A DNA stretch of 64,000 nt. Source: Bacteroidales bacterium. GTDB taxonomy: Bacteria > Bacteroidota > Bacteroidia > Bacteroidales > UBA12077. Where the stretch lies: NCBI GenBank assembly GCA_030611105.1, contig JAUWQL010000002.1, positions 6,192 to 70,191 on the forward strand, given 5' to 3'. Position 1 is the first letter of the stretch, and every line of letters starts with the position of its first letter. The notes under the pieces were generated by a model, which saw only the letters and a program-made list of their open reading frames with translations, had not been told where the DNA came from and made no database searches. The position numbers and the translations under genes were made by a program. This document shows, in pieces, positions 1,648 to 27,711 of the stretch.

Positions 1648-2193
1648 CTAATTCGCAGGAAATAATTTCTCGATTTCTTCCTTACAAATAGTACGTTCCT
1701 TAACTAATTCTCCTTTATTTGAATATTGCAATATCGTAAAAGTACAGCATTCTGTTTTTTTAACATTCATCATAATATTACCATCTTCATAATAAACAAT
1801 AAAATCCTTAGCTATTTCACCATTATTAAAGAATATTTCCTTTTGCAACTTACCATTGCTATAATAATAGCTCCATAACCTATCTTTATTTCCATTCTTG
1901 TAAAACCCTACTGCATCAATTATATAATCTGAATCATAAATAGTTACTGAATCACTTATAATTATATGTGGGTTTGTATATTCTGTATCTTTATCTACAG
2001 ACATTAATTCATATGTATTAAGTGGCGTAAAGAAAAGCCATTTACCAAACCTTTGACCACTATCATTATATTGATTTAAAGTATCACCTTTAAATACTGT
2101 ATAATCTTTATACACCTGAATAGCATCATTTTGGGAATGTGATGCTAATGTATAGAAAGATGCTAGTATTGTTATTAATAGTTTTATTTTCAT
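1648..2193 (-). CDS. Secreted YwqK/MORN-repeat-like protein, candidate immunity protein for the upstream RHS toxin
   Basis: Signal peptide MKIKLLITILASFYTLASHSQ. Repeats of the G.W..YY.NG type (FYKNGNKDRLWSYYYSNGKLQKEIFFNNGEI). Starts 6 nt downstream of the RHS stop. Confidence 0.6.
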   Translation of the reverse strand: MKIKLLITILASFYTLASHSQNDAIQVYKDYTVFKGDTLNQYNDSGQRFGKWLFFTPLNTYELMSVDKDTEYTNPHIIISDSVTIYDSDYIIDAVGFYKNGNKDRLWSYYYSNGKLQKEIFFNNGEIAKDFIVYYEDGNIMMNVKKTECCTFTILQYSNKGELVKERTICKEEIEKLFPAN

Positions 2194-2199
2194 TTTTAA

Positions 2200-5100
2200 T
2201 TATCTTAATTCCAGATTAATAGTCGTATTAATAGTCGTTGTTTTTGAATCAAGCCTTTCTAATCGATGTTCTTTTGCTTCTGTTTTAACTTGTTCCTCAG
2301 TCTTATTCGCTTCAACTTCTCGTTGGTCACTTAACTCTTCACCCATATAAAATCCCATAAAACTTGCTATTTGTTCTGATAATTTTATATTATCTGGATC
2401 AGTTGCATGTATTGCTTCATGAGAAGCAACAGCACCTATAGCTTCGTCCATAGTGTATGTTGAATATTCTCCACCTGAGTTTTGGTCTTGAGCAATTGTG
2501 CCTTCAAAAATAGTAATTATTCCATTTCCGTCCGGGTTAAATTCTGCCGTCCCTGTTTCACGATTTTTAATTGGCAATTTAGTTCTTCCTAATGCTGTAG
2601 GGTCTACATCTGGACTAAGAACAAGTTGTATACCATAGTCAGCATTTACTAAATTATTAAATTGTTTGGTTCCTGTCGGAGTTGACATCATTGCATTTCC
2701 AATTTTCATTGCTCCCACTGAGGCATTTTTTGACCAACCAGTTTTATTTGAATAAATTACATTCTTATTTGCATCTACAATATCATTTCCATCAGGGTCA
2801 ATAAAACGGATAGGGTTATTAACTGCATATACATAAGGCGAAATAGAATAATACTTCTCTGCTTTATTATCTATCACTCCCCACCTTTCATCCATCTTAA
2901 AGCGAGCACCATAATCGTCCCACATTAATCCAAATTCGTCCTGTCTCTCTTTACCATTATATAAATATTTTGTGGGTAGTCCTGTACTGTAATTCAATCC
3001 TGCTAAAGTCATTCCAAACGGATAATAGTGTGCCTCCTGCAATATTTCGGCTGTACCTGTTCCATCATCGGTAAACATTACACGGTTATTGCCCAAATGG
3101 TCTTGTAAGTAATATTCATAACGGTATTCACTGTCAGGAATGGTTATCCTTCCTTCATCGGTGTGGATCAGCTCCAACTCGCCTTCATTATATTCAAAAT
3201 TTCCTACATAATGCCTGTCAGAAATCAAACTACCGGATTCATACACTTGTTTCCTTAATTTAACGCCTGCTGCATTATAAGTAAACTCTAAACGGTTTCC
3301 GCTGCCAAGATCAACTATTGCAGGTAAATTCAAATAATTATACTCAATATTAACAATTCCTTTATTATCATCAATAAACATGCTGCCATTTGCATCATAT
3401 AAGTACTCGTGCGTATTTATATCGTTTACGTCCGGTACAACAACACTGCCATTGTCTGTAAAATCATCTTCCAATTGCCCGCTAATAACATCATTCTTAG
3501 CAATTAACTGGTTACCGTTGTAATAGAAAGTTAAATCGTCTATTGTACTGTTTTGCCCTTCTCTTATAAGTGTCAAGATATTTCCGTTAGCATCATAAGA
3601 TATTCCGGGAACATCATATTTGCTTAAATCTGCCCACGTACCGGACTTTTCGCCGTAATTAGCTTTTGACAAGCGGTTAATAGCATCGTACTTGAAGCCG
3701 TAACCACGAATTCCCGTGTTATAAGCTGTTTGCCATTTCATAGCCGAGATATTGCCGTTAAACTGCCGATCTGCTTCGTCATTAAGGGTTGGCAGAATAT
3801 CGTTATAATGCAACTGCATTGCAAACATATCTTTTGGCTCACCTGTTTGTTGTAGGTTATCTGGATTGTTGATACTTGTAAGCCATCCACGTATATTATA
3901 CTCGTAATCTATTTCCTGCAAAAAGTTTCCGGAAGCAGATTCATGTAATTTCTTTTTAATAAGCTGCCCGAGTTCATTGTATTCCATAGCAGCCATCAGC
4001 ACTTCAGGGTTTGTGCCCACCTGATGATGCACTTCTGTTAACCTGAATGCATGATCGTAATCGAATTCTTGATTTATTTCAACTGATGTTGCTCCTGCAT
4101 TCTTTACATGAATTTGTTTTGTTTTTAAAACTGTACCTACAAAATCGTATTTACTTAGAAACAGGTCATCGCCACCCAAATAATTCTCGGCGTATGCCCT
4201 TAAAACCCGGTATTTGTCGTCGTAAAGGTTTACAGATAATAAATAACGATCTTCGGTTCCCAACACTTTAGTCAAGGTTCCGGTTACCAAACCTTTTACT
4301 GCATAGTTAATTTCCGAAACAAGATAATCATCATTGTCAATAGATTCTGCATAATCACGAACATTATCGAATGTACCTATAGGGTTTTCATCGAAATTGT
4401 AATTATCGTAGTAAGTAACTGTTAATATTTCATCGTTAGCATCCAGTTGTGGAAACGATTGGTTAGTATATCCAAAATCAGCATTATCATAATCAGTACC
4501 TACAGGTATTTCTTCGTAGAAAATATCCATCTGGCTATTTACAGTATCCTGCATTGTAGTTTGACTAATTGTACTTCCGTAAGCATAAATACCTGTCAAT
4601 ACAGGACGATTTAATACATCGTATTTGGTAAACATCCATTTATTCGCATCGCATAAGTTCCCGTCCTGTGTTAAAACAATTCGGTCGCGATTGTCGTGGA
4701 CAAGGTAAACAGGTTGTGCGCCAGGGAGTTTCTTCTGTGTCATCCGCCTGCGGCCATCGTACTCGTAGTAATAACATAAGTTATTTATGGTATTTGCATC
4801 TATTGTTCCTGTTGTTTGAGTGCTAATTACCTCAACTGCTTTAGGTGGAATTACATAACGTAATAATCCATAATCGTCATAAACATAATAAGTTTGAAGA
4901 TTTAATCCGTCAGCTGACGGATCGGAAACTTTTAATAAAACTTGCCCCAGCACATTTTTAAACTCGTAAGTCCAAACACCATTTTCATCCCGTGTTCCTG
5001 TTTTATATAAAGTTGCAGGATCATAATTTGGCTTTGCAATTAAGTTATTGTTTTCATCAACTTCAAATAGCTTAACTTCACCTTCGTTGGTTTGGTAAGC

Positions 5101-5604
5101 AAAATGAACCGCATTATCTTCATCGCTGCTTTTTACGGGTTGCCAAACTGTTCCAGGAGCACCCTGCTGCAACACACGGTTTAGTGGTGATTCTTCGAAC
5201 TCAATAACAGCCCATGGTTCAACAGTTTCTGTAGCTTTAAACTCACTCTGATAAAATGCATCCTGCTCGTTTTCTGCTAACTCTCTGAAAAACCCGCCTG
5301 CTGCTTCGGAAACATATGGCAAAAACTTCTTCGACTCGCGGCCATATTCATCGTATTCAACATGTTGAATCATATCCTTACCATCAGGGCTAGCTCCTAC
5401 CTGAATACTTTGAATGGGGCGACCTAGGCCATCGAAATAACTTACCGAGATGCTTTTATCATTTATTCCAGTTGTTGGTACTGTAGTACCCGAAGTATAA
5501 ACTTTTTCGATGATAAAGTTTTGGGTATTCTGAGATATTGCACTACTTACTCCAATATATAAGAAAAGCATGCAAAAAACTGATATATTTAATAGATTTT
5601 TCAT
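2200..5604 (-). CDS. DUF6443-type RHS/YD-repeat polymorphic toxin with a C-terminal HExxH (zincin-like) toxin domain
   Basis: Signal peptide. N-terminus SYFDGLGRPIQSIQVG...YDEYGRESKKFLPYVS is a DUF6443-like pattern. Many YD repeats (YDANGNILTL, YDAINRLSKANY). RHS core end is YVYAVNNPIRFIDPDG. A 194-aa tail follows and contains SHEAIHATD (HExxH at nt 2406-2421). Confidence 0.9.
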   Translation of the reverse strand: MKNLLNISVFCMLFLYIGVSSAISQNTQNFIIEKVYTSGTTVPTTGINDKSISVSYFDGLGRPIQSIQVGASPDGKDMIQHVEYDEYGRESKKFLPYVSEAAGGFFRELAENEQDAFYQSEFKATETVEPWAVIEFEESPLNRVLQQGAPGTVWQPVKSSDEDNAVHFAYQTNEGEVKLFEVDENNNLIAKPNYDPATLYKTGTRDENGVWTYEFKNVLGQVLLKVSDPSADGLNLQTYYVYDDYGLLRYVIPPKAVEVISTQTTGTIDANTINNLCYYYEYDGRRRMTQKKLPGAQPVYLVHDNRDRIVLTQDGNLCDANKWMFTKYDVLNRPVLTGIYAYGSTISQTTMQDTVNSQMDIFYEEIPVGTDYDNADFGYTNQSFPQLDANDEILTVTYYDNYNFDENPIGTFDNVRDYAESIDNDDYLVSEINYAVKGLVTGTLTKVLGTEDRYLLSVNLYDDKYRVLRAYAENYLGGDDLFLSKYDFVGTVLKTKQIHVKNAGATSVEINQEFDYDHAFRLTEVHHQVGTNPEVLMAAMEYNELGQLIKKKLHESASGNFLQEIDYEYNIRGWLTSINNPDNLQQTGEPKDMFAMQLHYNDILPTLNDEADRQFNGNISAMKWQTAYNTGIRGYGFKYDAINRLSKANYGEKSGTWADLSKYDVPGISYDANGNILTLIREGQNSTIDDLTFYYNGNQLIAKNDVISGQLEDDFTDNGSVVVPDVNDINTHEYLYDANGSMFIDDNKGIVNIEYNYLNLPAIVDLGSGNRLEFTYNAAGVKLRKQVYESGSLISDRHYVGNFEYNEGELELIHTDEGRITIPDSEYRYEYYLQDHLGNNRVMFTDDGTGTAEILQEAHYYPFGMTLAGLNYSTGLPTKYLYNGKERQDEFGLMWDDYGARFKMDERWGVIDNKAEKYYSISPYVYAVNNPIRFIDPDGNDIVDANKNVIYSNKTGWSKNASVGAMKIGNAMMSTPTGTKQFNNLVNADYGIQLVLSPDVDPTALGRTKLPIKNRETGTAEFNPDGNGIITIFEGTIAQDQNSGGEYSTYTMDEAIGAVASHEAIHATDPDNIKLSEQIASFMGFYMGEELSDQREVEANKTEEQVKTEAKEHRLERLDSKTTTINTTINLELR

Positions 5605-5690: not shown

Positions 5691-8600
5691 TTATAGTCTT
5701 ACTAGTCCTTCTTTTTCATAATTTTTATTACTTATAGCCTGCGTTACATTGCTATATGAGTAGTATTTTGGACTATAGTCTCCATATGGATAAGGATATA
5801 TTGAACCATTCCATCCATAAGGAACATAAACTGTATAATATCCTTCAGAATTTGTGATAGCTGTATATGTTCCTGTTTCAGAACCTTTAGCATCTGTCAT
5901 AATAACATCTCCAATACCAAATTCACCTAACCATGGACTATAACTATAAATTCTCCCACTTATTGGAATCATTATAACCTCTCCTACGAAGTTTTGGTTA
6001 CTTTTATTAGCAACTACAGCAGAACTATAATTTCTTGTTGATGTTGAGAATGTGTAACCAGTTTTAGAAACAGAAATAGATCCGGTCCATCCATGATTCA
6101 CACTAAAAGAATAATAACCTGTAGATGAAGAAGTTTTTGTTCCACCTGTACTCATTGACAGGCTTGCTCCAGAAATAGCATTTCCATCGTCATCTTTAAC
6201 ATATCCTGTAATAGTATAAGTTTTTAGGGTTGCAGTAAAATTTTGATTTGATTTTGTATATGTTATACTACCAGGACTAATAGAACTGGGAGAAAAAGTG
6301 TAACCAGTCTTGCTTGGTGTTATCGTGCCATTCCAATTGTAATTAACATATTTATAATAATAACCTGAGCTATTAGTTGTAACTGTTCCTAAACCGCTAA
6401 AAGAAACACTTACTGAAGATAATGCTGAACCATCTTTTGTTATGTAACCTGAAACCTTATAAGTTTTTAAAGTTGCAGTATAATTTTGAAATGATTTAGC
6501 TACTATCACGTTTGAATAATTTATATATTCTGGTGAAAAATTATAGCCTGTTTTTGATGGTGTAACTTTACCTGACCAACCATATGCTACACTCTTCGTA
6601 TAATTGCCTGAAGAATTAGTATAAACATCGCTTAATCCTTCAAATGTTAATTTTACATTAGATAATGCAGAACCATTATATGATATTCTTCCAGAAATTG
6701 TTTTATAAATCTTAGTCCCTTCAAAATTAATATTAGAGTAGTTGGTATTTATATTATTTACTTCAAATGGTAAGCAGAAATTAGGGTCAACGCATTTGCG
6801 TTCAAATTCATATCCGTATTTTGATACAGAGATTGTACCACTCCAACCATATTCTGCTGTCAGGGTGTATGTACCATCAGAACCGGTAACAAAAGAATCG
6901 CTGTTATCGGACAATTTTACTGTAACTCCTGATATTCCTATAGGGTGATAATCACGAATTGTTCCTGAAATTGTATAAGTATTAATAGTGCCATCAAAAT
7001 TTTGATTTGATTTAACAGATGTAGTAGAACTAATTGGGATTGAGCCTGGAGAAAATGTATAACCTGTTTTGGAAGGTGTAATACTCCCTTCCCAACCATA
7101 ATCCACTGTTTTTTCATAGTATCCGGAACTATTTGTTGTTACAGATCCAAGACCACTATATGCTACACTTACTCCTGATAAACCAACACCATCTTTCTTT
7201 ATATGTCCAGATACTTTGTATGTTTTTAGGGTCGCAGTATAATTTACTATTCGTTGCATAGAAACGACTTCTGAATAATCGGTATATATTGGATTGAAGT
7301 CATAACCTTCAAATATAGGCGTTACCCGACCAGACCAATTATAATCAACATTTTTACTAAATACTCCATTTGAAGAAGGATTAGTACTACTTAAATCAGA
7401 AAATGTTACTTGCACATTTTCTACAATATCATCTATCCCATTAATGGTTCCACTAATTGCGTAAGTCAATTTTGTTCCTTCAAAATCAATATTGTTATAA
7501 ATTTGATCTAAGTTATTGATTGAAAAAACAGAACATAACTCGATACAATTATCTTTCTCAAAAGTATAACCTGTTTTTGATACCTCTACATATCCATTCC
7601 AACCATATTCTGCTGTTAAAGTATAAATACCGTCAGAACCGGTTACAAAAGAATCACTATTATCAGATAATTTTACAGTAACGCCTGATATTCCAACAGG
7701 ATGATAATCATGAATTGTTCCTGATATAACATAGGTATTTATTGTTCCTGTGAAATCTTGGTTTGGCTGATCCAAAATAACTCCAGGAGAATCATAATTG
7801 TGCAATGATGTTGTAAAACTATATCCGGTTTTAGATACTGATATAGTTCCTGTCCAGCCATGATTTACTGTAAATGAGTATAAACCTGTTGATGTAGTTG
7901 TTATTGAACTCTGCCCTGTAATTGAAACTTCTGCTCCTGAAAGTCCAACCCCAGACTCGTCTTTTACTTTTCCGGAAATTTCATAGTTTTTTATAGTACC
8001 GTTATAATTTTGAATAACATCAGAGATTTGATTAGAATATGTGAATTCTGAATTTGCAAAAGTATATGCAGGATGAGAAACAGAAACAGTACCATTCCAA
8101 TCATAATCGACTGTAAAAGAATATGCTCCGGATGCTGTAGTTGTAACACTTTGTCCGGAATTAGTTGTAACTAGTACACCTTCAATGTTGTTATTATTTA
8201 TATCTTTAATAACACCACTTATACTCAGAGGAGTCCTTTGTAATACTATATCACCTATAGTAACATCAGTAATTACATTTGGATCGACAGTTATAGTTAA
8301 GTCCTCAAAACTATTTTTATTAATTGTAATGTTTGAATTAACATAACTCCAATTATAGTATACTTCCAAATCGAAGTTACCCTGATCATCTGTATTTGTT
8401 CGAGCATAAACAAATGCTTCATGATTAAAATCATATTCCATTATTGCGTTTACTTCTGCATCAATAACAGGATCTCCATTTGAATCAATAACTCTACCAC
8501 TGATAATCGGCTTGAATAATGTAAAATTCTGATTTGTATAATTCTGTTGTATATTAAAAAATTCATACTGTGAAAAAGGTTTATTCAAAGAAGTAACCAG

Positions 8601-11600
8601 ATAAGTCGGTGCATATATTGAAATTAATACGGAAGTACCATACTCTACATTAAATTCGTAATATCCATTCACATCTGTGTTAGTGTAATCATCTATATTT
8701 TCAATTCGATGTACAACAGGCTGATCATATCGATCAAATACATACCCGGAGATAGTGTAGGATATACGACTCGCATTAATAATATCTAAGTTAAGATCCT
8801 CACCTAATTCCGAAATATTTAATGTTGCAATATCATAACCTTCTTTCTCGAAACTTATACTACCGTTAAAAGACCTATCGGCTAATAATGAAAATCCTCC
8901 AGTATCATCTGATACAGTAGAAACACCATTGCTTAATCCTACTATAACTCCTTCAAGACCAGTTGCATCTAATTGAATTGTACCTGAAATCTCAATAGGT
9001 TCATTGTCTGTTTGATAATAATACTCATATTCCTTTAATAAATTAGTATCATTATCTCTAACATTAGTTAATCTGCCCAATCCATCGTATTCGTAATGTG
9101 TAATTTTACCGTTCGGATCGGATTGGGAGGTCATCCCAGTTAAGAGATCATAAGTATAAGTTGTAACATTTGCTGAAGGTAAACTATCACGCAGCACATT
9201 TATTTTATCTCTTATTTCTTGGTCACTTAAAGTGTTTAATTTCAATTTATTTAACTCTGTTTGACCTATTGCTGCTTGTATTTCATTGTATGTGCAATTT
9301 TCGATTCTGGCAACTGGTAGTGTGCTGTTGTAACCCCATATGTAGGATACAAACATATCATTTATTTTATGAAGCTGAATGATGTTCCCGTATTCATCAT
9401 ATCTGTCAAAAACTACTCTTCCTTTATAAGCTCCATTCTCATAATTAAAGATTGTATCTTTCGAAATAATATCATTTTGACCTAACTTATAAGAACTTAA
9501 AGAACCCTTTATTTTTGTATTACCTTTGAAAGTCTCTACTTCTACTTTTTCATTTATTATATTCTTAGAAAATAGAGCACTATATAAACTACCACTTAAA
9601 TCATAAGGGTAATAGTAATTATTTTGTAATGTTTCTTCTTCACCCAAACTAAAATTCCCTATTTTTTTAGTTTCGATCTTAAGTTGATTTTTAGAATCGT
9701 ATAAAAACGTTTTAGACTCTGTAACATCATAACCATTTAGGTTTTTTATTGTATTTGCTAAGCTAAGGAGTCCAATCCCTCCTTTTATCTCATATGTACG
9801 ATGATCAATAAAATATTTGGTAGAATCTTCCCATTCATCCGCTAAGCATGATATTCTTTCAAAACCCGCTTTTAAAGCAAAAAAATCAGTATTTTCAATT
9901 AAATCATAAATATTAATAGTTGTAACTACTTTCTTATTACTACTATCTAAAACTGTTTGTTTAATTAAATGGCCTCTTTTCCAATCTTCACTTTCAATTG
10001 GTGGATATGGATTCATATTATATCTGTAATCTCTATATTCTTTAGGTGATAAAAATTCATATATTGTTTTTCCATTATCCTCAGACGATGACAAATATTC
10101 TGTTACTGTGGAATATCCAATATGGCTTCCTTGCGTATTTCCTAGTGGACAATAACTCCCTGAGTTGCGAGTATAATATTTGCATTCTTCCAAACCAAGA
10201 TATTTATTTATAAAATCATTGTAAAGGATACCATCATAATGTGGTTTGCCTGAAGCTAAGAATCCACTCGACTTGGCATCATCAAGCAGTTGTGTATATT
10301 CATAATTCTTTTGACTAACAATTATGTTTTCACTACTATAATTGGATATTTGCTTTATACGTGCACCTCCGGCGTCAGAATTTACTATGCTGTTAAATCC
10401 ATATTTTTTATAGCTTAGTAATAAATTTGATGAAAAATTTGATCCATTATCCCAACCTTCACGTTTTAATGAAATCCTATACCAACCTTGACCAAGTATT
10501 AATTGTTTAATCAACAAACCATCCGGTTCGCCTTCATCCACAGTGAAATTATTCTCATTATAGGTGTAGGAATTTCTGCCATTATCAGTTATATATGTAA
10601 ATTCAGCTACATTATGGTGTGGATCCCCTGTTAAAACTGTAATTGGTTCAACTACAGCTACAATAGGATTCTCAAACTCATCCCAACCAATTAGCGGTGA
10701 TAAACTAAAATCCATGTAGCCATTTTGGTTAAAATCAATATTCCTATATGTAACAATTTCATCATCATCAGGAGTAAACTCAAGAAATGCATCTACATTA
10801 ATATTTTCTGCGGGGATTGTTTCATCGTAATAATCATGTCCTTCGAATATAAATCTTGTATATCCACCAGTTGGGTAATCAATTCTATTTATCAATCCAC
10901 AAGTACTATACGAATTGTGAGCTTCTCGATCTGCCCCTTCTTGGAATGCATCTATATCTTCTGGGATAAAAGTAGTCGTATTGTTAGCACCATTATAATA
11001 TCCCCAATGATCTTGATTATAAGATCCACGAGAAGGTAAATTACTATTATATGAAAATTTATATGCTGGAAGAGATAGGCTTTCATCGCCAGAGTATTCT
11101 TTAATTGAATCTAACTTTAACCTGTAATTTCCATAATAAGTAAGAACTCCACTTTGAAAATAACTATGTCCTAATTTAAATCTTTTAATTTCTGTATCTG
11201 TCCTTCTATCCCTTATATGGATTGCCTTCAAATAAGATCCTGAACCATCCATCAAATCACTTCGAGGTTCAGTACTAGGTATAAATTCAATAATTTGATT
11301 ATCTGTAATTATTTCATGAATTTTATATGAAACGATCGTAGTCACACTAGTTCGTTTGTTATTATCTAATTCACTGCAACCGCTAGTGGAACTTGTTTGT
11401 AATGTATATGCAGTCTCTGTGATGCTATTATCATAAATTTCGAGAGGGTTAACTTGGAATTCACTTTCACAAGGTGCAAATAAGTCAATCTCATCATAAT
11501 AAGTAATATTTATTTCATCTTCTTCAAAAGGACTTGTTATTTTTGTTAAATACCATGCCGATACATAGCGTATTTCAGAACGACTCGTAACTTCACTAGA

Positions 11601-12461
11601 TCCACTAATATTATTAGTTACTTCTGTTCTACTGAAATAATATTTAGTCCCATCCGGTATTGTTATAGTAAAATCTTTTATACTTCTTTCAGGATGAAAC
11701 GTCTGCAAAACACATTCAGAAGTAGTATTCTCATCACAAACTTTAATCCATGTTGGTAATACTCCTATTCCTCCTGTAAAGACAGGCACCCAATTACAAT
11801 GCTCACTACTAGAAGTTTGCGGAGCCCAATAAGAAACAGGCTCGCCTTCATCTATTGTAACATCAACTTTCAGATTCTGTTCAGAAGTTAATTTAACAAC
11901 ATAGATACCTGCGTTTTTTTGAATAACAAATTTACCAGAATAACCATTAAAATTAAAATTAAAAACATCAGGTTCTGTATCGATATTCCCCTTGGCAGCT
12001 TCCCAATAAAATTCCTTCTCAGCCCATTCCCCATAGCCTGTATAGCCAGTATTTGAAATATATGGACTTATATCAAAATATCCATTATCTCTTTCATCAG
12101 GGAAACCTCTCATAGTTCTTGCAACAACTCCTCCCGCATTTAATGACCAACCTAATCCAACCCAGCTGGAAATTTCATCAACCTTAAACCCGCCTGCGTG
12201 ATATGAGAGTGAAACAGGCAAGCTAAGTTTTTTACTTTTAGCTTCCCAAATGGGAATATTTATCGACGGTGTTCCTGTATATAAACTAACTGGCACATCT
12301 CCATACTTACCAAGAGCAGCCGCATCAGGTGAAGGTGGAACTTCAACAAAATTATTTACCTCGTATACAGAATTGAACTCTCCAACTTCCTGTGCAAACA
12401 AACTAATATGACAAAGTAAAAAAATACTTAAATAAATGCTGATTTTTGTAATAATTCTCAT
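5691..12461 (-). CDS. Giant (2256 aa) secreted protein: SpvB/TcB-like N-terminal region, YD repeats, then 13 tandem Ig-like/CarboxypepD_reg-like modules
   Basis: Signal peptide MRIITKISIYLSIFLLCHISLFAQE. N-terminal motif LSLPVSLSYHAGGFKVDEISSWVGLGWSLNAGGVVARTMRGFPDE and PDVFNFNFNGYSGKFVI resemble the SpvB/TcB N-terminal pattern. YD repeats YTYDLLTGMTSQSDPNGKITHYEYDGLGRLTNVRD. The C-terminal half has 13 modules of about 82-88 aa (x-ISG-x ... G.Y...V.YGW.G.I..SK.GY.F). Confidence 0.85.
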   Translation of the reverse strand: MRIITKISIYLSIFLLCHISLFAQEVGEFNSVYEVNNFVEVPPSPDAAALGKYGDVPVSLYTGTPSINIPIWEAKSKKLSLPVSLSYHAGGFKVDEISSWVGLGWSLNAGGVVARTMRGFPDERDNGYFDISPYISNTGYTGYGEWAEKEFYWEAAKGNIDTEPDVFNFNFNGYSGKFVIQKNAGIYVVKLTSEQNLKVDVTIDEGEPVSYWAPQTSSSEHCNWVPVFTGGIGVLPTWIKVCDENTTSECVLQTFHPERSIKDFTITIPDGTKYYFSRTEVTNNISGSSEVTSRSEIRYVSAWYLTKITSPFEEDEINITYYDEIDLFAPCESEFQVNPLEIYDNSITETAYTLQTSSTSGCSELDNNKRTSVTTIVSYKIHEIITDNQIIEFIPSTEPRSDLMDGSGSYLKAIHIRDRRTDTEIKRFKLGHSYFQSGVLTYYGNYRLKLDSIKEYSGDESLSLPAYKFSYNSNLPSRGSYNQDHWGYYNGANNTTTFIPEDIDAFQEGADREAHNSYSTCGLINRIDYPTGGYTRFIFEGHDYYDETIPAENINVDAFLEFTPDDDEIVTYRNIDFNQNGYMDFSLSPLIGWDEFENPIVAVVEPITVLTGDPHHNVAEFTYITDNGRNSYTYNENNFTVDEGEPDGLLIKQLILGQGWYRISLKREGWDNGSNFSSNLLLSYKKYGFNSIVNSDAGGARIKQISNYSSENIIVSQKNYEYTQLLDDAKSSGFLASGKPHYDGILYNDFINKYLGLEECKYYTRNSGSYCPLGNTQGSHIGYSTVTEYLSSSEDNGKTIYEFLSPKEYRDYRYNMNPYPPIESEDWKRGHLIKQTVLDSSNKKVVTTINIYDLIENTDFFALKAGFERISCLADEWEDSTKYFIDHRTYEIKGGIGLLSLANTIKNLNGYDVTESKTFLYDSKNQLKIETKKIGNFSLGEEETLQNNYYYPYDLSGSLYSALFSKNIINEKVEVETFKGNTKIKGSLSSYKLGQNDIISKDTIFNYENGAYKGRVVFDRYDEYGNIIQLHKINDMFVSYIWGYNSTLPVARIENCTYNEIQAAIGQTELNKLKLNTLSDQEIRDKINVLRDSLPSANVTTYTYDLLTGMTSQSDPNGKITHYEYDGLGRLTNVRDNDTNLLKEYEYYYQTDNEPIEISGTIQLDATGLEGVIVGLSNGVSTVSDDTGGFSLLADRSFNGSISFEKEGYDIATLNISELGEDLNLDIINASRISYTISGYVFDRYDQPVVHRIENIDDYTNTDVNGYYEFNVEYGTSVLISIYAPTYLVTSLNKPFSQYEFFNIQQNYTNQNFTLFKPIISGRVIDSNGDPVIDAEVNAIMEYDFNHEAFVYARTNTDDQGNFDLEVYYNWSYVNSNITINKNSFEDLTITVDPNVITDVTIGDIVLQRTPLSISGVIKDINNNNIEGVLVTTNSGQSVTTTASGAYSFTVDYDWNGTVSVSHPAYTFANSEFTYSNQISDVIQNYNGTIKNYEISGKVKDESGVGLSGAEVSITGQSSITTTSTGLYSFTVNHGWTGTISVSKTGYSFTTSLHNYDSPGVILDQPNQDFTGTINTYVISGTIHDYHPVGISGVTVKLSDNSDSFVTGSDGIYTLTAEYGWNGYVEVSKTGYTFEKDNCIELCSVFSINNLDQIYNNIDFEGTKLTYAISGTINGIDDIVENVQVTFSDLSSTNPSSNGVFSKNVDYNWSGRVTPIFEGYDFNPIYTDYSEVVSMQRIVNYTATLKTYKVSGHIKKDGVGLSGVSVAYSGLGSVTTNSSGYYEKTVDYGWEGSITPSKTGYTFSPGSIPISSTTSVKSNQNFDGTINTYTISGTIRDYHPIGISGVTVKLSDNSDSFVTGSDGTYTLTAEYGWSGTISVSKYGYEFERKCVDPNFCLPFEVNNINTNYSNINFEGTKIYKTISGRISYNGSALSNVKLTFEGLSDVYTNSSGNYTKSVAYGWSGKVTPSKTGYNFSPEYINYSNVIVAKSFQNYTATLKTYKVSGYITKDGSALSSVSVSFSGLGTVTTNSSGYYYKYVNYNWNGTITPSKTGYTFSPSSISPGSITYTKSNQNFTATLKTYTITGYVKDDDGNAISGASLSMSTGGTKTSSSTGYYSFSVNHGWTGSISVSKTGYTFSTSTRNYSSAVVANKSNQNFVGEVIMIPISGRIYSYSPWLGEFGIGDVIMTDAKGSETGTYTAITNSEGYYTVYVPYGWNGSIYPYPYGDYSPKYYSYSNVTQAISNKNYEKEGLVRL
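6230..7745 (-). repeat. Tandem duplication (2 x about 756/759 nt) of a three-module block inside the giant gene
   Basis: Modules 6-8 and 9-11 are pairwise near-identical. Example: INTYVISGTIHDYHPVGISGVTVKLSDNSDSFVTGSDGIYTLTAEYGW versus INTYTISGTIRDYHPIGISGVTVKLSDNSDSFVTGSDGTYTLTAEYGW. DNA matches at offsets 756-759 (6843 versus 7599; 6472 versus 7231). Confidence 0.75.
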
Positions 12462-12828
12462 ATCAATAATAAATTATAAATTTTCAAAACGAAATCTAAA
12501 TTATAACGATTAACTTTTGAGGCTATATAATATAGTATGTTTTATAACACAATCATAATTTTGGAAATTTCATAAACAAATTTTGAGTTTTCACTTTCGC
12601 AAATAACCGTAGTAGACTAATAATTAAGAAATAAAGATATTAACATTCCAAAATTTTAAAACATACTGTTTAAAAGATAAACGTGAGTTTTCAACAAAAA
12701 AATCAATTTTGTTGAAAAGATAATTTCAAAATTTAACGTAAAAAAGAATTTCGGATCTAAGTGTCTTTATTTAAGCAATAAAGGTGTTGAAATTCGCTAA
12801 TTCATATTAGTTCTAAATAATTTAAAAT

Positions 12829-14262
12829 TTAGGAGTTTATCAAAATGGAGTAAATTTCTTCAATGGAAGTTTGCCCGTCTTTAAACAATTCAAAAGCAGA
12901 ATCGGAAAGTGTTTTAAAATTGCTCTCGCCAATAACTTCATGTTCATCAATATTTTGTGCTTTTATTGTTTCGGCTAATTCATGATCAATAGGAATAATT
13001 TCATATACCGCTTTTCGGCCTTTATAACCTGTATAGAAGCATTCTTCGCATCCTTTTGCTAAATAATGCACCTTAACTTGTTGTGGTGGTTTATAATTTC
13101 GTGGGTATAGCATGTTATTAAATTCCTGTTTTTCTTTACAAACGGGGCAGAGTAAACGCACCAATCGTTGTGCAACCGATAAATTTAATGTACTTGCTAC
13201 CAGAAAAGGAGGAACTCCCATATCGTTTAATCGTGATATTGTACCCCAGGCAGAATTAGTATGTATAGTAGATAAAACTAAATGGCCAGTGAGTGCCGCA
13301 CGAACAGCCATTTTTGCTGTTTCGCCATCTCGAATCTCACCTAGCATAATAACATCAGGATCCTGGCGTAAAAATGTTCTCAGTGCACTTGCAAAAGTTA
13401 ATCCTATACTTTCTTTCAACTGTACCTGGTTTATTCCTTCCAAGGTATATTCAATAGGATCCTCAATAGTCACAATATTTGAATGTTCCTTATTTAAAAT
13501 TTTTAAAGTAGCGTACAATGTAGTTGTTTTTCCCGATCCTGTTGGCCCACTAATTAAAATAATGCCATGAGGTTTCTTAATTCCTTCGGAATAATTTCTC
13601 AATTGCTCTGTATTCATTCCCAGCAATTCAATATCAATATCGGTTGCATCTTTGCTTAACAAACGCATTACTACTTTTTCGCCGTATAGTGTTGGCAAAA
13701 CCGAAACACGAATATCAAATTTTTGGTCTCCATCGTGAAAAAATATTCGTCCGTCCTGAGGTAATCTTTTTTCTGCAATATCCAGGTTGGCCTTAATTTT
13801 TATTTTATTGATAATAGACGGGTAATCCTCTTTATTCAATACATAACGTTCAATAAGTTTACCATCAATACGCATTCGAACCCGGCATCTATCTTCGTAT
13901 GTCTCAATATGAATATCAGAGCTTCCTATATCATCGGCTTCTGAGATCAGGTTTATTAAAAAATCATCTGATTTAGGAATAAAAACATCTGCTCTCGAAC
14001 TTTTCGAAGTTTTCTTTTTTCGATAATATTTTCCTAAAGATTTTTGTATAATATTTGAATCGACCTTTTCAAGTTTGATCGTTTTGCCAAAAAGCAATTC
14101 TAATTCGTCGGAAATCTGATCAGAATATTTTGAATCATCTATATAAAATTCTATCTGGTTATTCTCAGAATGTTTTGGAACGATATTATAGTGCCATGCC
14201 TGCTCAGCAGTAATTATCTGCTGAAGTTCAGTTGAAATTTCTATAAATCCATCTCTAATCAT
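12829..14262 (-). CDS. Type II secretion / type IV pilus assembly ATPase (GspE/PilB family)
   Basis: Walker A GPTGSGKTTTLYA, Asp/His boxes, tetracysteine motif CPVC...CEEC, and a T2SSE_N-like N-terminus. Confidence 0.9.
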   Translation of the reverse strand: MIRDGFIEISTELQQIITAEQAWHYNIVPKHSENNQIEFYIDDSKYSDQISDELELLFGKTIKLEKVDSNIIQKSLGKYYRKKKTSKSSRADVFIPKSDDFLINLISEADDIGSSDIHIETYEDRCRVRMRIDGKLIERYVLNKEDYPSIINKIKIKANLDIAEKRLPQDGRIFFHDGDQKFDIRVSVLPTLYGEKVVMRLLSKDATDIDIELLGMNTEQLRNYSEGIKKPHGIILISGPTGSGKTTTLYATLKILNKEHSNIVTIEDPIEYTLEGINQVQLKESIGLTFASALRTFLRQDPDVIMLGEIRDGETAKMAVRAALTGHLVLSTIHTNSAWGTISRLNDMGVPPFLVASTLNLSVAQRLVRLLCPVCKEKQEFNNMLYPRNYKPPQQVKVHYLAKGCEECFYTGYKGRKAVYEIIPIDHELAETIKAQNIDEHEVIGESNFKTLSDSAFELFKDGQTSIEEIYSILINS

Positions 14263-14783
14263 AATTTCCTAATAATGTGTTCTAAAATTATATAATCGTT
14301 ATAAAGACTAAACTTAATAAAAATCTGAGAAATTATAACTACCAACAAAAAAAGAGATTGCAAACCAGCAAGAGGAACTCTTTGCTTTTTATAAATTCTT
14401 AGCCAGTTAATAATTGAATAAACTAATAAAGAAAATATAATCGAAGCAATAAAAAACACTATAAAATTTAAGGGTGAGAAAAGCGGAATTATCATTATAA
14501 GGAATAATAAATCACCGAATCCAAAAACGGATTTAAAGATGTTTTTTCGTTGTTTATATTTAATCCAAGTAAATAGATAGATAATGCACAGTTGAAACAA
14601 CACAAACAAGGTATTAATTACCACATTCAAGAAAATATCTGGCAGGTAATCTACTTTTACAGAGATCCACATTGTAAGTACAAATCCAATAAGAAAAAAA
14701 ATCCAGGATACAGCTTGAAAGCGAAAATCCTGGTATAAAATAATTAGAAGTACTATAAGTAATACAATTTTAATATAAAGCAT
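14259..14783 (-). CDS. Short prepilin peptidase-like membrane protein (A24 family, TadV/CpaA-like, no methyltransferase domain)
   Basis: Polytopic membrane protein. Two candidate catalytic Asp contexts: LYQDFRFQAVS and FGFGDLLFL (compare GxGDxKL). Overlaps the ATPase gene by 4 nt and follows the pilin gene by 3 nt. Confidence 0.55.
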   Translation of the reverse strand: MLYIKIVLLIVLLIILYQDFRFQAVSWIFFLIGFVLTMWISVKVDYLPDIFLNVVINTLFVLFQLCIIYLFTWIKYKQRKNIFKSVFGFGDLLFLIMIIPLFSPLNFIVFFIASIIFSLLVYSIINWLRIYKKQRVPLAGLQSLFLLVVIISQIFIKFSLYNDYIILEHIIRKL

Positions 14784-14786
14784 AAA

Positions 14787-15182
14787 TTAATCCTTCACTA
14801 CTTCACGTAAGTTCTTATCCTGATCAATTTCCCAAACATTAAATGTTCCATCTCCGTCGAAGTCAACAATTGCAGTTGCTTTGGCTTTAAAACTATTAAC
14901 CGATGCTTCAACAACCTCAATGATATAATTCGCTGTACCTCCCTCTGAAACTAACTTTTCGTGTGCGTATCCGATTTCCTCAAAATCCTCAGAATACCTT
15001 GAGTACATATAGAAATAACTTTTCTCAAGCATATGTAAGTGATCCAACTGCAATTTAGCTTCCGTACTTCTGGCTCTTGATATTAGAGGCATTAAATTAG
15101 GTATTGCTAATAGAACCAGTATTCCTATTATAATTAAAACAACCAACAGTTCTGTTAAAGTAAACGCTTTTACCTTTTTCAT
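14787..15182 (-). CDS. Type IV pilin / pseudopilin with prepilin N-terminal cleavage-methylation motif
   Basis: MKKVKAFTLTELLVVLIIIGILVLLAIP: class III signal peptide with Glu at +5 after the predicted cleavage before FTLTE. Confidence 0.85.
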   Translation of the reverse strand: MKKVKAFTLTELLVVLIIIGILVLLAIPNLMPLISRARSTEAKLQLDHLHMLEKSYFYMYSRYSEDFEEIGYAHEKLVSEGGTANYIIEVVEASVNSFKAKATAIVDFDGDGTFNVWEIDQDKNLREVVKD

Positions 15183-15190
15183 ATCATAAT

Positions 15191-15284
15191 CATTTAATCC
15201 AAGTCAAAATTAATCAAATCAATTCATTTTGAAAGGAATATTTACAAAAATAACATAAAATTTATAGACACCTATTCGGACACC
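15191..15284 (-). promoter_or_regulatory. Upstream module of the pilin operon: -7 box plus distal GACACC direct repeats; a near-copy exists at 27620-27711
   Basis: On the minus strand, TAATTTTG (nt 15212-15205). GACACC at 15267-15272 and 15279-15284 (12-nt period). The 40-nt core 15191-15230 is 35/40 identical to 27620-27659. Confidence 0.45.
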
Positions 15285-15337
15285 CTAATTAAATTCTGGC
15301 TTGCATAAGCCTGATTTTGTGCCCTATATATATTAAT

Positions 15338-15358
15338 TTCGACTCCCGCCAGCTCCAC
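15338..15358 (+). mobile_element. tmRNA (ssrA) 3'-terminal fragment; att-type direct repeat of a genomic island
   Basis: TTCGACTCCCGCCAGCTCCAC is the T-loop/T-stem plus 3' acceptor strand (CAGCTCC + discriminator A) characteristic of tmRNA. No 5' part of a tmRNA or tRNA precedes it; the upstream sequence is AT-rich non-RNA-like. Confidence 0.6.
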
Positions 15359-15366
15359 TTTTAATT

Positions 15367-15401
15367 GAAACGTTTTGAAATCAAAAGCCTCAAAACGTTT
15401 C
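15367..15401 (+). terminator. Hairpin immediately after the tmRNA-like fragment
   Basis: Perfect 12-bp inverted repeat: GAAACGTTTTGA (15367-15378) and TCAAAACGTTTC (15390-15401). Confidence 0.4.
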
Positions 15402-15503
15402 TTAATCAACTATTTATAACAATTCTTTGATGCTTTTATTAGGTTAGTTTTTAAGTTATTTTTCATATTTGTTTTACAAATGTTTAACATAAAAAAATAA
15501 CTT

Positions 15504-15821
15504 ATGAATGCATCAGTAAAACTAATTTTAAGAGAAGGCTATGTTCGAAAAAATGGAACAAGTCCGGTTAATCTTCGGTTAACAATTAATAGAAAATCTA
15601 AATACTATTCTTTGGGAATTTTTATTGTTAAAGAAGACCTAAAAAAGAACAAATTTAAGGTTAAAGAAACTGTCCCAAAATCTCAAATAATCAATATTCA
15701 ATTAAGAGACTCTATTTCAAGAGCTGAACAAATCTTATTAGACTTTTTTAAGTTTAATAAACCTCCTACGTTCACAGAATTTGAGAAAATATATAAGGGT
15801 AACTTTTCAAAAGAATATTAA
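15504..15821 (+). pseudogene. Tyrosine integrase, N-terminal arm-binding fragment only (truncated)
   Basis: MNASVKLILREGYVRKNGTSPVNLRLTINRKSKYYSLGIFI resembles the N-terminus of Bacteroidota phage-type integrases. The ORF stops after 105 aa and no catalytic domain follows. Confidence 0.6.
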
Positions 15822-15853: not shown

Positions 15854-16013
15854 ATTGATCTTAAAGTATAAATTAATCTTACTATTATATTTTAAATTTC
15901 TGAGTACTATAAAAAAAATGTATTTAATTCTAACCCAAAATATAAAGAAATATATTGTTAATGTTCAATATAATGAACAAAATTATGTATATTTGTGCAA
16001 AATACTGAACGTT

Positions 16014-16337
16014 ATGGCAAGAAGAAAAAATGTTTTATTACCAAAATCGAAACGAATACTTTTAGAACTTGGCGAAAATATTCGATTAGCAAGATTAAGA
16101 AGAAAATTAAGTACTGAACAAGTTGCTGAAAGAGCAAATATGAGCAGAACAACTTTATATGCTATTGAAAAAGGATCTCCAACAGTTAGTATTGGTTCTT
16201 ACTTTTCTGTATTACAGGTATTAGGATTAGAAAAAGATTTTCTACTTTTAGCAAAGGATGATGTATTGGGAAGAAAATTACAAGATGCCAAAATTAAGAC
16301 ACAAAGACGAGCCCCAAAACGAACAAATAATGAGTAA
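16014..16337 (+). CDS. hipB: HipB-like XRE-family antitoxin
   Basis: Internal ATG at 16014 of track ORF 15855..16337. HTH LSTEQVAERANMSRTTLYAIEKG. Overlaps the HipA start by 8 nt. Confidence 0.75.
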   Translation: MARRKNVLLPKSKRILLELGENIRLARLRRKLSTEQVAERANMSRTTLYAIEKGSPTVSIGSYFSVLQVLGLEKDFLLLAKDDVLGRKLQDAKIKTQRRAPKRTNNE

Positions 16338-17598
16338 AAGAAAAATATGTGTTTATGCAGATTGGCAGGAAATTGACACTCCTTTTTTAATTGGATTTTT
16401 ATATTCTGAAAGATTAAGAGGAAAAGAGATCTTCTCATTTGAATATACTGAAGAATGGTTAAAGTCAGAAAATGCTTTCCTACTTGACCCTGCACTACAA
16501 TTATATTCGGGCTTACATTATTTGAATGATGATGAAAAATCAAACTTTGGAATATTCCTAGATTCATCTCCTGATCGATGGGGACGTTTATTAATGAGAA
16601 GAAGAGAAGCGGCCTTGGCTAGAATTGAAAAACGAACAGAACAAACTTTATTTGAAACAGATTATTTGCTTGGCGTTTATGATGGTCACAGAATGGGAGC
16701 TTTAAGATTTAAATTAGAAGAAGATGAACCATTTTTAAATGATAATAAAGAATTAGCTAGTCCTCCATGGACATCACTCAGAGAATTGGAGCAAATCAGT
16801 TTAAAACTGGAAGATGATGATGTTACAGACGATCCTGAATATTTCAAATGGTTAAGCATGCTAATTGCTCCTGGTTCTTCGTTGGGCGGTGCAAGACCAA
16901 AAGCAAGTGTTATTAATAAAGATGGAAGCTTATGGATTGCTAAATTTCCAAGCCGTAGTGATATAGGAGATGTTGGTGGTTGGGAAATGGTTACTTATGA
17001 ATTAGCATTAAAAGCCGGTATTAACATGGCGGAATCCATGGCACAAAAGTTTTCTTCTAATTACTATACTTTTCTTACCAAACGATTTGATAGAAAGGAG
17101 AAAAATGAACGAATTCATTTTGCATCTGCTATGACCATGTTAGGTTATATCGATGGACAAGACCATAGTGATGGAGCTAGTTACCTTGAATTAGTAGAGT
17201 TTATTAGCAATAATGGAGCTAATGTGAATGAAGATCTAGAAGAATTATGGAGAAGAATCGTTTTTAGTATTTGTGTTTCTAATACCGATGATCATCTACG
17301 AAATCATGGTTTTATACTCTCCGATAAAGGGTGGCTTTTATCTCCTGCTTACGATATAAACCCTAATGAAAATGGATCTGGTTTAAAATTGAATATATCT
17401 GAAAATGACAATGCTCTTGATCTTGACCTTGCCATGGAAGTGCATGAATATTTTAGATTAACACAAGAAAAGGCAGAAGAAATAATAAAAGAAGTAAAGA
17501 AGTCTGTTCAAGATTGGAGAAAAATTGCTACGAAATACGGAATTTCAAAAGCAGAGCAAGAACTTAAAAGTATCGCTTTTTCAAGAGCAAAAGGTTAG
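16330..17598 (+). CDS. hipA: HipA-family type II toxin serine/threonine kinase
   Basis: HipA N-terminal coupling region (ICVYADWQE..IGFLY). Motifs GSSLGGARPKASV and NTDDHLRNHGF. Confidence 0.9.
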   Translation: MSKRKICVYADWQEIDTPFLIGFLYSERLRGKEIFSFEYTEEWLKSENAFLLDPALQLYSGLHYLNDDEKSNFGIFLDSSPDRWGRLLMRRREAALARIEKRTEQTLFETDYLLGVYDGHRMGALRFKLEEDEPFLNDNKELASPPWTSLRELEQISLKLEDDDVTDDPEYFKWLSMLIAPGSSLGGARPKASVINKDGSLWIAKFPSRSDIGDVGGWEMVTYELALKAGINMAESMAQKFSSNYYTFLTKRFDRKEKNERIHFASAMTMLGYIDGQDHSDGASYLELVEFISNNGANVNEDLEELWRRIVFSICVSNTDDHLRNHGFILSDKGWLLSPAYDINPNENGSGLKLNISENDNALDLDLAMEVHEYFRLTQEKAEEIIKEVKKSVQDWRKIATKYGISKAEQELKSIAFSRAKG

Positions 17599-27619: not shown

Positions 27620-27711
27620 CATTTAATTAAAGTCAAAAATAATCAAATCAATTTATTTATATAGAAATATATATAAAGTTTTTCAATTAAACTGACTCCT
27701 ATCTGGACACC
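27620..27711 (-). promoter_or_regulatory. Upstream module of the thioesterase gene; near-copy of 15191-15284
   Basis: -7 box TATTTTTG (minus strand, nt 27641-27634). GACTCC at 27694-27699 and GACACC at 27706-27711 (12-nt period). 35/40 identity of 27620-27659 with 15191-15230. Confidence 0.45.

Follow-up and report, generated by a model that had tools for sequence, protein, structure and literature searches.

The 64,000-nucleotide (nt) window analyzed here (positions 6192–70191 of contig C152 of the Bacteroidales genome G000, the studied assembly) carries three adjacent genes, numbered in window coordinates, that encode a pilin-like protein (G), a short A24-type prepilin peptidase (O), and a GspE/PilB-type assembly ATPase (E). 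A preliminary description of the window had presented this trio as an orphan, minimal pseudopilus set travelling with an RHS toxin cassette, or equally as a remnant of a larger cluster. Judged by gene content and gene order as described by Wang et al. (2017, PMC5553014), the three genes form the head operon (G-O-E) of the Bacteroidota "type II secretion system (T2SS)-like" type IV filament cluster, of the type of CHU_3191-3202. We are highly confident that it is part of a complete but split machine, whose other genes lie on two further contigs. In related species, this machine is divided into three blocks by cassettes encoding a giant exported protein and a DUF6443-RHS toxin, and in one of them, G043, the whole array lies on an island at the transfer-messenger RNA (tmRNA) gene ssrA. 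Taken as one statement, that the machine is complete, split, island-borne, and linked to the toxins as its cargo has a probability of roughly 0.5 in our estimate.

The pilin, peptidase, and ATPase trio

The three genes are translationally coupled, as the preliminary description had claimed: the open reading frame list confirmed a 3-nt gap between G and O and a 4-nt ATGA overlap between O and E. The trio is also co-oriented with the giant and RHS genes on the minus strand and lies 367 nt upstream of them (spacer 12462–12828). The pilin exceeds the Pfam cut-off of the N_methyl family (PF07963, E = 1.9e-6), and its top NCBIfam models are PilA, ComGC, and GspG, with every score under the equivalog cut-off. 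Its identity across families is 63%–77%, and in 24 orthologues the −1 residue is A or G, the +1 residue is F or Y, and the glutamate at +5 is invariant.

The window peptidase scored 18.7 bits against Peptidase_A24 (PF01478), under the cut-off of 26.5 bits. On sequence grounds, the assignment as an A24 prepilin peptidase is sound despite this score, because (i) Peptidase_A24 is recognised in 9 of 13 orthologues (best E = 1.3e-9); (ii) D19 and the G88-x-G90-D91 motif, which holds the GxGD aspartate, are invariant among the orthologues; and (iii) the closest solved structure is that of the short preflagellin peptidase FlaK (3S0X), a weak match (E = 0.07) in which the first aspartate is aligned. 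A Pfam search of the 174-amino acid (aa) protein found no N-terminal methyltransferase or DiS_P_DiS domain of the bifunctional PilD. The peptidase gene sits between G and E in all 24 loci compared (24/24), and G-O-E is contiguous in each of them.

The ATPase scored 491 bits against the GspE model (cut-off 630 bits) and 484 bits against the PilB model, both under the equivalog cut-offs. The Walker A motif GPTGSGKT and four cysteines (C372, C375, C405, and C408) are invariant in its orthologues. It is the sole T2SSE protein above the cut-off genome-wide, and therefore the genome has no PilT.

The remaining machine genes

The preliminary description had noted that a platform protein and a secretin are missing from the window, and had suggested a genome search for pilC/gspF, pilQ/gspD, and pilMNO. 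The window indeed contains no pilus gene apart from the trio. Genome-wide profile searches bore out the first point and located the partners: T2SSF and Secretin matches occurred only on contigs C60 and C142, with a single T2SSF/PilC gene on C60 (E = 5.5e-42) and a single secretin gene on C142 (PF00263, 1.9e-37), the product of which has STN domains. Next to the secretin gene, C142 carries five conserved accessory genes and PilM/N-like genes; the 400-aa protein encoded there shows a weak PilN match. One of the two minor pilins on C60 has an N_methyl domain. Together with the trio, the ten partners make up 13 genes, each of which is full length by comparison with its orthologues.

In the congeners G003 and G017, the 13 genes are contiguous and operon-like, in an identical order: pilin, peptidase, ATPase, secretin (D), ~410-aa protein, ~183-aa protein, lipoprotein, ~165-aa protein, MORN-repeat protein, ~410-aa protein, two minor pilins, and PilC. 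The 13-gene array recurs in many other families of the order, with G-O-E-D contiguous in most. The label "orphan" is thus true only within the window and its contig, since the ten partners are intact on C142 and C60, and "minimal pseudopilus set" does not describe 13 intact genes spread over three contigs. Decay into a remnant is unlikely, because neither the trio nor any of the partner genes is shortened. The components missing from the window are encoded elsewhere, and the trio belongs to a canonical Bacteroidota system that has been split, which is the outcome that the preliminary description had itself set against its proposal. The trio is an ordinary, well-conserved piece of a known but poorly understood machine.

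A 142-aa GxxExxY-type gene (C142:11461-11889) was observed between the 198-aa and 430-aa machine genes, with short GT-rich repeats on both sides; it is absent from this position in the congeners.

Division of the machine by toxin cassettes

The layout of the split machine was visible in G043, in which a 426-kb contig carries, on one strand, G-O-E; a 1091-aa giant and a 2079-aa DUF6443-RHS protein; the secretin gene through to a 438-aa gene; a 2488-aa DUF6443-RHS protein and more giants; and the two minor pilins and PilC. The same three-block layout is present on one contig of G048, and in G024 and G047 a giant gene directly follows the ATPase gene before the contig end. The E-D link is broken by a toxin cassette in G000 as in G043 and G048. 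Each of the three contigs of G000, a fragmented assembly with a completeness of 89.7%, therefore matches one of the blocks of G043; that the contigs are neighbours in G000 is inferred. This three-block split by cassettes, together with the ssrA-island context described below, is what the window adds to the known system.

At least five species keep the split layout, with ATPases that are 81%–88% identical. In the ATPase tree, the six ATPases of the split-type subclade form a monophyletic group (support 100/99), and the split is therefore probably ancestral to this subclade. The deep branches of the tree are unsupported, so that the tree speaks for the monophyly of the split-type genus subclade only and transfer between families is not demonstrable from it. 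The ATPases of G058 and G183 (L049/L056), which are labelled as different families, are joined by branch lengths of 0.14 and 0.12 with support of 100/100. Their closeness hints at a recent transfer of the machine between lineages.

In G000, genes for two tyrosine recombinases, an orphan RHS tip followed by a small gene, and a HicB-like gene occupy the start of C142, upstream of the secretin gene. At its left end, C152 carries a primase-like gene and a second RHS gene that runs off the contig, together with two recombinases. The tyrosine recombinase pairs of these two regions (C152:1-6191 and C142:600-5150; 308 + 316 aa and 336 + 298 aa) adjoin RHS fragments or orphan tips, and the primase-like gene close by encodes 947 aa. 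These pairs may form a system that swaps RHS tips, or may mark a mobile element that has entered the cassette. In G047, an 82-aa fragment of an ATPase C-terminus (L147, G047:C31, ~10814-11059), 67% identical to residues 396–477 of the window ATPase, lies between two tandem giant and RHS modules, distant from the intact machine. This suggests that modules were copied or exchanged along with the 3′ end of the ATPase gene.

The probable ssrA island

The preliminary description had placed the trio inside a putative island. This placement agrees with a copy of the ssrA 3′ end near the pilin gene and with a complete ssrA island in the sister species G043. There, ssrA (L057:18280-18674) lies 13 kb past PilC and is adjoined by mobilisation-type genes and a 414-aa tyrosine integrase with Arm-DNA-binding, SAM-like, and catalytic domains. 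A direct repeat of 28 nt (TACTTTTGTGGAGCCGGCGGGAGTCGAA) has its only copies at the ssrA end and ~150 nt upstream of the pilin gene, and the ~51 kb between ssrA and this repeat encloses the whole machine and both cassettes. In G000, the genuine ssrA gene is located at C75:6170-6568, 559 nt from the contig end, and is on a separate contig from its 3′ repeat; no intact integrase was seen.

Within the genus-level survey of 37 genomes, the ATPase is patchily distributed (9/37), which fits the island reading. The closed, machine-free genome G008 keeps ssrA and one conserved flank, with a neighbour gene that is 88% identical; the other flank is not clean. It is likely, on these observations, that the machine and cassettes are island-borne and integrated at ssrA. 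The clusters of other families have no tRNA or tmRNA genes next to them. The island context is therefore specific to the genus subclade, and a shared island does not explain the adjacency of machine and toxin genes in those families.

Beyond the attachment repeat and a cut-down integrase, window positions 15855–17598 hold genes for an XRE-type regulator and a 446-aa HipA-like kinase. These genes probably belong to a second, degenerate element integrated in tandem.

Association of the machine with giant and RHS modules

The neighbourhoods of the machine were compared in 15 clusters with usable flanks from families other than that of the host. Giant and RHS cassettes flank or interrupt the machine in 8 of the 15 clusters, at varying positions: (i) modules lie on both sides of the cluster in G281; (ii) a giant gene starts ~12 nt after a machine gene in G270; (iii) a module follows PilC in G140; (iv) a module lies just upstream of the pilin gene in G299; (v) a module is divergent from the pilin gene in G253, with a second module 23 kb away; (vi) the ATPase gene is followed by a gene for a 2823-aa RHS protein in G337; (vii) giants and RHS fragments adjoin the cluster in G107; and (viii) an adjoining giant with the same N-terminal domain is found in G307. 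G141 has an RHS-tip fragment only. The chance expectation of adjacency between machine and module is ~1%–7% per genome.

Co-occurrence was assessed in an even sample of the order (301 genomes; 30 positive and 271 negative for a PilB/GspE-type ATPase), with residues 30–560 of the 2256-aa giant protein of the window as the query for the giant N-domain. The N-domain was present in 22 of 30 genomes with the ATPase and in 38 of 271 without it (Fisher 2e-11, a value in which kin are counted as independent and to which bigger genomes holding both features may contribute), and DUF6443 in 15 of 30 and 36 of 271, respectively. In the genus, modules accompany all 9 of the ATPase-positive genomes and 4 of the 28 ATPase-negative genomes. 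The co-occurrence test that the preliminary description had suggested thus gave a strong association that is not obligatory, since 38 of the 60 module-bearing genomes are free of any PilB/GspE ATPase. The functional tie that it had proposed between the trio and the toxin cassette fared similarly on comparative evidence: the giant and RHS cassette itself splits the machine, and the pairing recurs in five congeners as well as in 8 of the other-family clusters, but many genomes carry modules without the machine.

The closed, machine-free genome G314 illustrates the latter case. It has three modules, and each is preceded by a gene for an exported protein of ~360–390 aa without a Pfam family (L141, L143, and L146), one of which carries a C-terminal type IX secretion system (T9SS) sorting domain. 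This upstream protein may stand in as a helper in genomes that lack the machine. Since modules are frequent without the ATPase and G314 is closed, the machine is not a general export route for them. Any dependency looks one-sided, in that the machine is seldom without modules and modules are often without the machine.

We found no paper on the pairing of such a machine with RHS proteins, and none naming DUF6443. In an ATPase-profile scan of public genome contigs, the matches listed were mostly generic PilB/GspE proteins of other phyla.

Features of the window and of the partner contigs

The features of the toxin cassette, the trio, and the island end are listed in Table 1, together with the two partner blocks. 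Sequence searches of the PDB with the giant and RHS proteins as queries revealed no solved relative beyond one YD repeat.

Table 1. Positions of the machine, toxin, and island features (window numbering for C152).
Feature	Position	Strand	Description
Candidate immunity protein	1648..2193	-	181 aa; directly downstream of the RHS gene; weak MORN_2 match
DUF6443-RHS toxin	2200..5604	-	1134 aa; PF20041 E = 1.4e-39; second module gene
Giant exported protein	5691..12461	-	2256 aa; conserved N-terminal 170 aa; first module gene after the trio
Spacer between ATPase and giant genes	12462..12828	-	367 nt; 12-bp AU-rich hairpin at 12688-12718; palindrome TATGTTTTATAACACA at ~12536-12551
GspE/PilB-type assembly ATPase (E)	12829..14262	-	477 aa; T2SSE PF00437 E = 1.6e-126
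Short A24-type prepilin peptidase (O)	14259..14783	-	174 aa; polytopic; PF01478 sub-threshold
Major pseudopilin/pilin (G)	14787..15182	-	131 aa; class III signal MKKVKA↓FTLTELLVVL; N_methyl PF07963
Pilin-operon leader	15191..15284	-	GGTGTCCGAATAGGTGTC repeat (15267-15284) and TTCTTTCAAAATGAATTGATTTGATTAATTTTGA, which holds a TAnnTTTG-type box
ssrA (tmRNA) 3′-end copy, putative attachment repeat	15338..15358	+	21 nt; TTCGACTCCCGCCAGCTCCAC; C152:21529; 155 nt upstream of the pilin gene
Integrase remnant	15504..15821	+	105 aa; Arm-DNA-binding domain PF17293 E = 2.9e-13; beyond the attachment repeat; no catalytic domain
C142 block			Secretin 639 aa, then genes of 400, 179, 324, 165, 198, and 430 aa, on one strand
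C60 block			Pilin-like 125 aa, pilin-like 181 aa (156 aa from an inner start), PilC 395 aa

Leaders and regulatory-looking sequences

In four species (L013, L022, L023, L025, and L026), an inverted repeat, ATATGTT-N4-6-AACATAT, precedes the giant genes of both cassettes by 60–110 nt. This palindrome of the giant leader recurs in G024 and, at both cassettes, in G043 and G048. A genome-wide search found five sites in G000, none of them at the other machine blocks. As a shared regulon of machine and toxins, the palindrome was rejected, given that there are five sites only and the machine blocks have none; its placement makes it a candidate operator of the toxin modules. The hairpin in the spacer between the ATPase and giant genes is weak (−11.7 kcal/mol, z = −2.25) and has no clear U tract.

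The leader that precedes the pilin gene is conserved in G000, G024, G043, G047, and G048, and promoter-like TAnnTTTG boxes are conserved upstream of both the pilin and the secretin genes in the split-layout species. In a sigma-70 scan of positions 12300–15600, with a model that does not cover Bacteroidota promoters, sites were no more numerous than in shuffled sequences. The GGTGTCC repeat of the leader (GGTGTCCGAATAGGTGTC) lies just inside both presumed island ends of G000, with the second copy ~100 nt beyond ssrA (C75:6672-6689), and a search found no copy at the secretin or minor-pilin blocks. The motif may be an arm site of the integrase, the operator of a regulator, or a copied promoter module. 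A variant of it, with ~60 nt of the pilin leader, is duplicated at window positions 27620–27711 upstream of an unrelated 166-aa thioesterase-like gene.

Comparison with known systems

Wang et al. (2017, PMC5553014) described this cluster in Cytophaga hutchinsonii (CHU_3191-3202) under the name "putative T2SS" of Bacteroidetes and listed it for Flavobacterium johnsoniae (Fjoh_0611-0622), among others. As in our window, the CHU cluster has a short A24 peptidase gene between the pseudopilin and ATPase genes, and its core order is G-O-E-D (PMC5553014). The pseudopilin, peptidase, ATPase, secretin, low-similarity PilM/N/O-like genes, two minor pseudopilins, and GspF/PilC are shared, as is the absence of PilT, and the published cluster is likewise not one single operon. 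The differences are that (i) the machine analyzed here is cut into three blocks by giant and DUF6443-RHS cassettes and probably lies on an ssrA island; and (ii) the published work concerns phenotypes of cellulose use and outer-membrane proteins, with toxin genes unmentioned. According to Denise et al., the Bacteroidota system branches with the type IVa pilus (T4aP), not with the T2SS, and may be an independently evolved secretion system (PMC6668835). The near-equal GspE and PilB scores of the window ATPase are consistent with this placement.

With the proteobacterial T2SS (Gsp/Pul/Xcp), the machine shares a secretin, a tetracysteine GspE-type ATPase, a GspF-type platform, a GspG-like pseudopilin, and a prepilin peptidase, as well as the lack of a retraction ATPase and a Sec-dependent cargo, which is putative in our case. 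Tested as a canonical T2SS, the cluster proteins gave no GspC, GspL, or GspM family matches and scored under the cut-offs of GspE (491 versus 630 bits) and GspG (35.8 versus 88.9); the peptidase differs in having no methyltransferase domain. The PilB-like ATPase, PilC, PilQ-type secretin, weak PilN-like domain, and pilin with a class III signal are shared with the T4aP, which differs in that PilT/PilU are absent here, the peptidase is short, and five conserved accessory genes have no T4aP counterparts. [quoted passage not shown] By contrast, the machine here is a type IV filament and secretin machine, the proteins have Sec signal peptides, and VgrG, PAAR, and TcA are absent.

Proposed function and alternative explanations

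From what is known of these families, the peptidase would cut a short leader off the pilins through D19 and D91, and the ATPase and PilC platform would polymerise the pilins under the secretin. The filament is most likely a T2SS-type piston or a static fibre, because no retraction ATPase is present. Its passengers, to go by the gene neighbourhood, would be the Sec-exported giant and RHS proteins encoded within the cluster, which would be pushed through the secretin or displayed at it. By analogy with G043, the blocks would be collinear on one strand, with the cassettes between them and everything on the tmRNA-gene island.

The repeated pairing suggests, but does not prove, that the toxins are served by the machine, and we take this as the leading hypothesis. 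We give close to an even chance to the proposal that the machine serves the embedded toxins. The fuller version, in which the T2SS-like machine is devoted to exporting or displaying two-part giant and DUF6443-RHS toxins and is jointly mobile with them in the genus as a tmRNA-gene "weapon island", is put forward tentatively. Several points weigh against the cargo link or the layout behind it: an RHS cocoon is possibly too wide for the secretin channel; 6 of the 15 other-family clusters have no module in the available flanks; the closed genome G314 and the other ATPase-free genomes make up 38 of 60 module carriers; and co-occurrence in the genus may reflect mere joint carriage on the island. In G000 itself, the 367-nt spacer and its hairpin part E from the giant gene, and the ends of C152, C142, and C60 overlap with no contig, so that their adjacency is taken from G043. 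Moreover, the sole published phenotype of the machine is cellulose use in Cytophaga, not toxins (PMC5553014).

Several of these points would also be expected if the adjacency were co-location without function, with the locus a permissive site or hot spot for cassettes, the machine secreting other proteins, which has been proposed in Cytophaga, and the toxins exiting otherwise. Modules occur in 38 of 271 machine-free genomes, including G314, where the gene upstream of one module carries a T9SS sorting domain, and 6 of 15 clusters have no module nearby. In the genus, the machine and cassettes probably share the ssrA island; the cassettes are interspersed with recombinases, a primase-like gene, and orphan RHS tips; and the ATPase 3′-end fragment between the modules of G047 suggests shuffling by flanking homology. 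A hot spot accounts less well for adjacency in at least 8 other families, which have no detectable tRNA/tmRNA island context, where the chance expectation is ~1%–7% per genome. Insertion points vary by family, yet the modules are nearly always co-stranded with the machine, and the machine occurs without the module family in only 8 of 30 genomes. On this evidence, co-location without function is possible rather than probable.

Two further explanations leave the toxin genes as bystanders or the machine inactive. A true pilus for DNA uptake (competence) or adhesion, beside which the toxin genes would be bystanders, agrees with the near-equal PilB and GspE scores of the ATPase, the PilA and ComGC matches of the pilin, and the branching of the Bacteroidota system with T4aP (PMC6668835). 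Some Flavobacteriaceae are naturally competent by an undefined uptake machinery (PMC8459023), and Cytophaga mutants show reduced adhesion to cellulose (PMC5553014). Against this reading, the genome has no retraction ATPase, the cluster is accessory, on a probable island, and missing in most congeners, nothing ties it to ComEC or DprA, and the published mutants point to secretion and outer-membrane protein effects (PMC5553014); we consider such a pilus unlikely. It is less probable still that the trio is a non-functional leftover, with the machine of this lineage inactivated by the splitting of its operon. In favour of this reading are the break-up of the operon into three units, the mobile-element genes and the GxxExxY-type insert in or beside the blocks, and the fragmented assembly (89.7% complete), but all 13 of 13 genes are intact and of orthologue length, at least five species with ATPases that are 81%–88% identical retain the split layout, promoter-like boxes are conserved upstream of pilin and secretin, and the catalytic and motif residues are conserved.

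Service of the embedded toxins by the machine, if correct, touches two questions. The interleaving of machine and cassettes bears on how Rhs toxins with Sec signals cross the outer membrane in Bacteroidota, and on the cargo of the T2SS-like machine, a question that has stood since 2017–2019. If the link is false, the locus would still be a clear example of an operon that looks functional after splitting by polymorphic-toxin cassettes.

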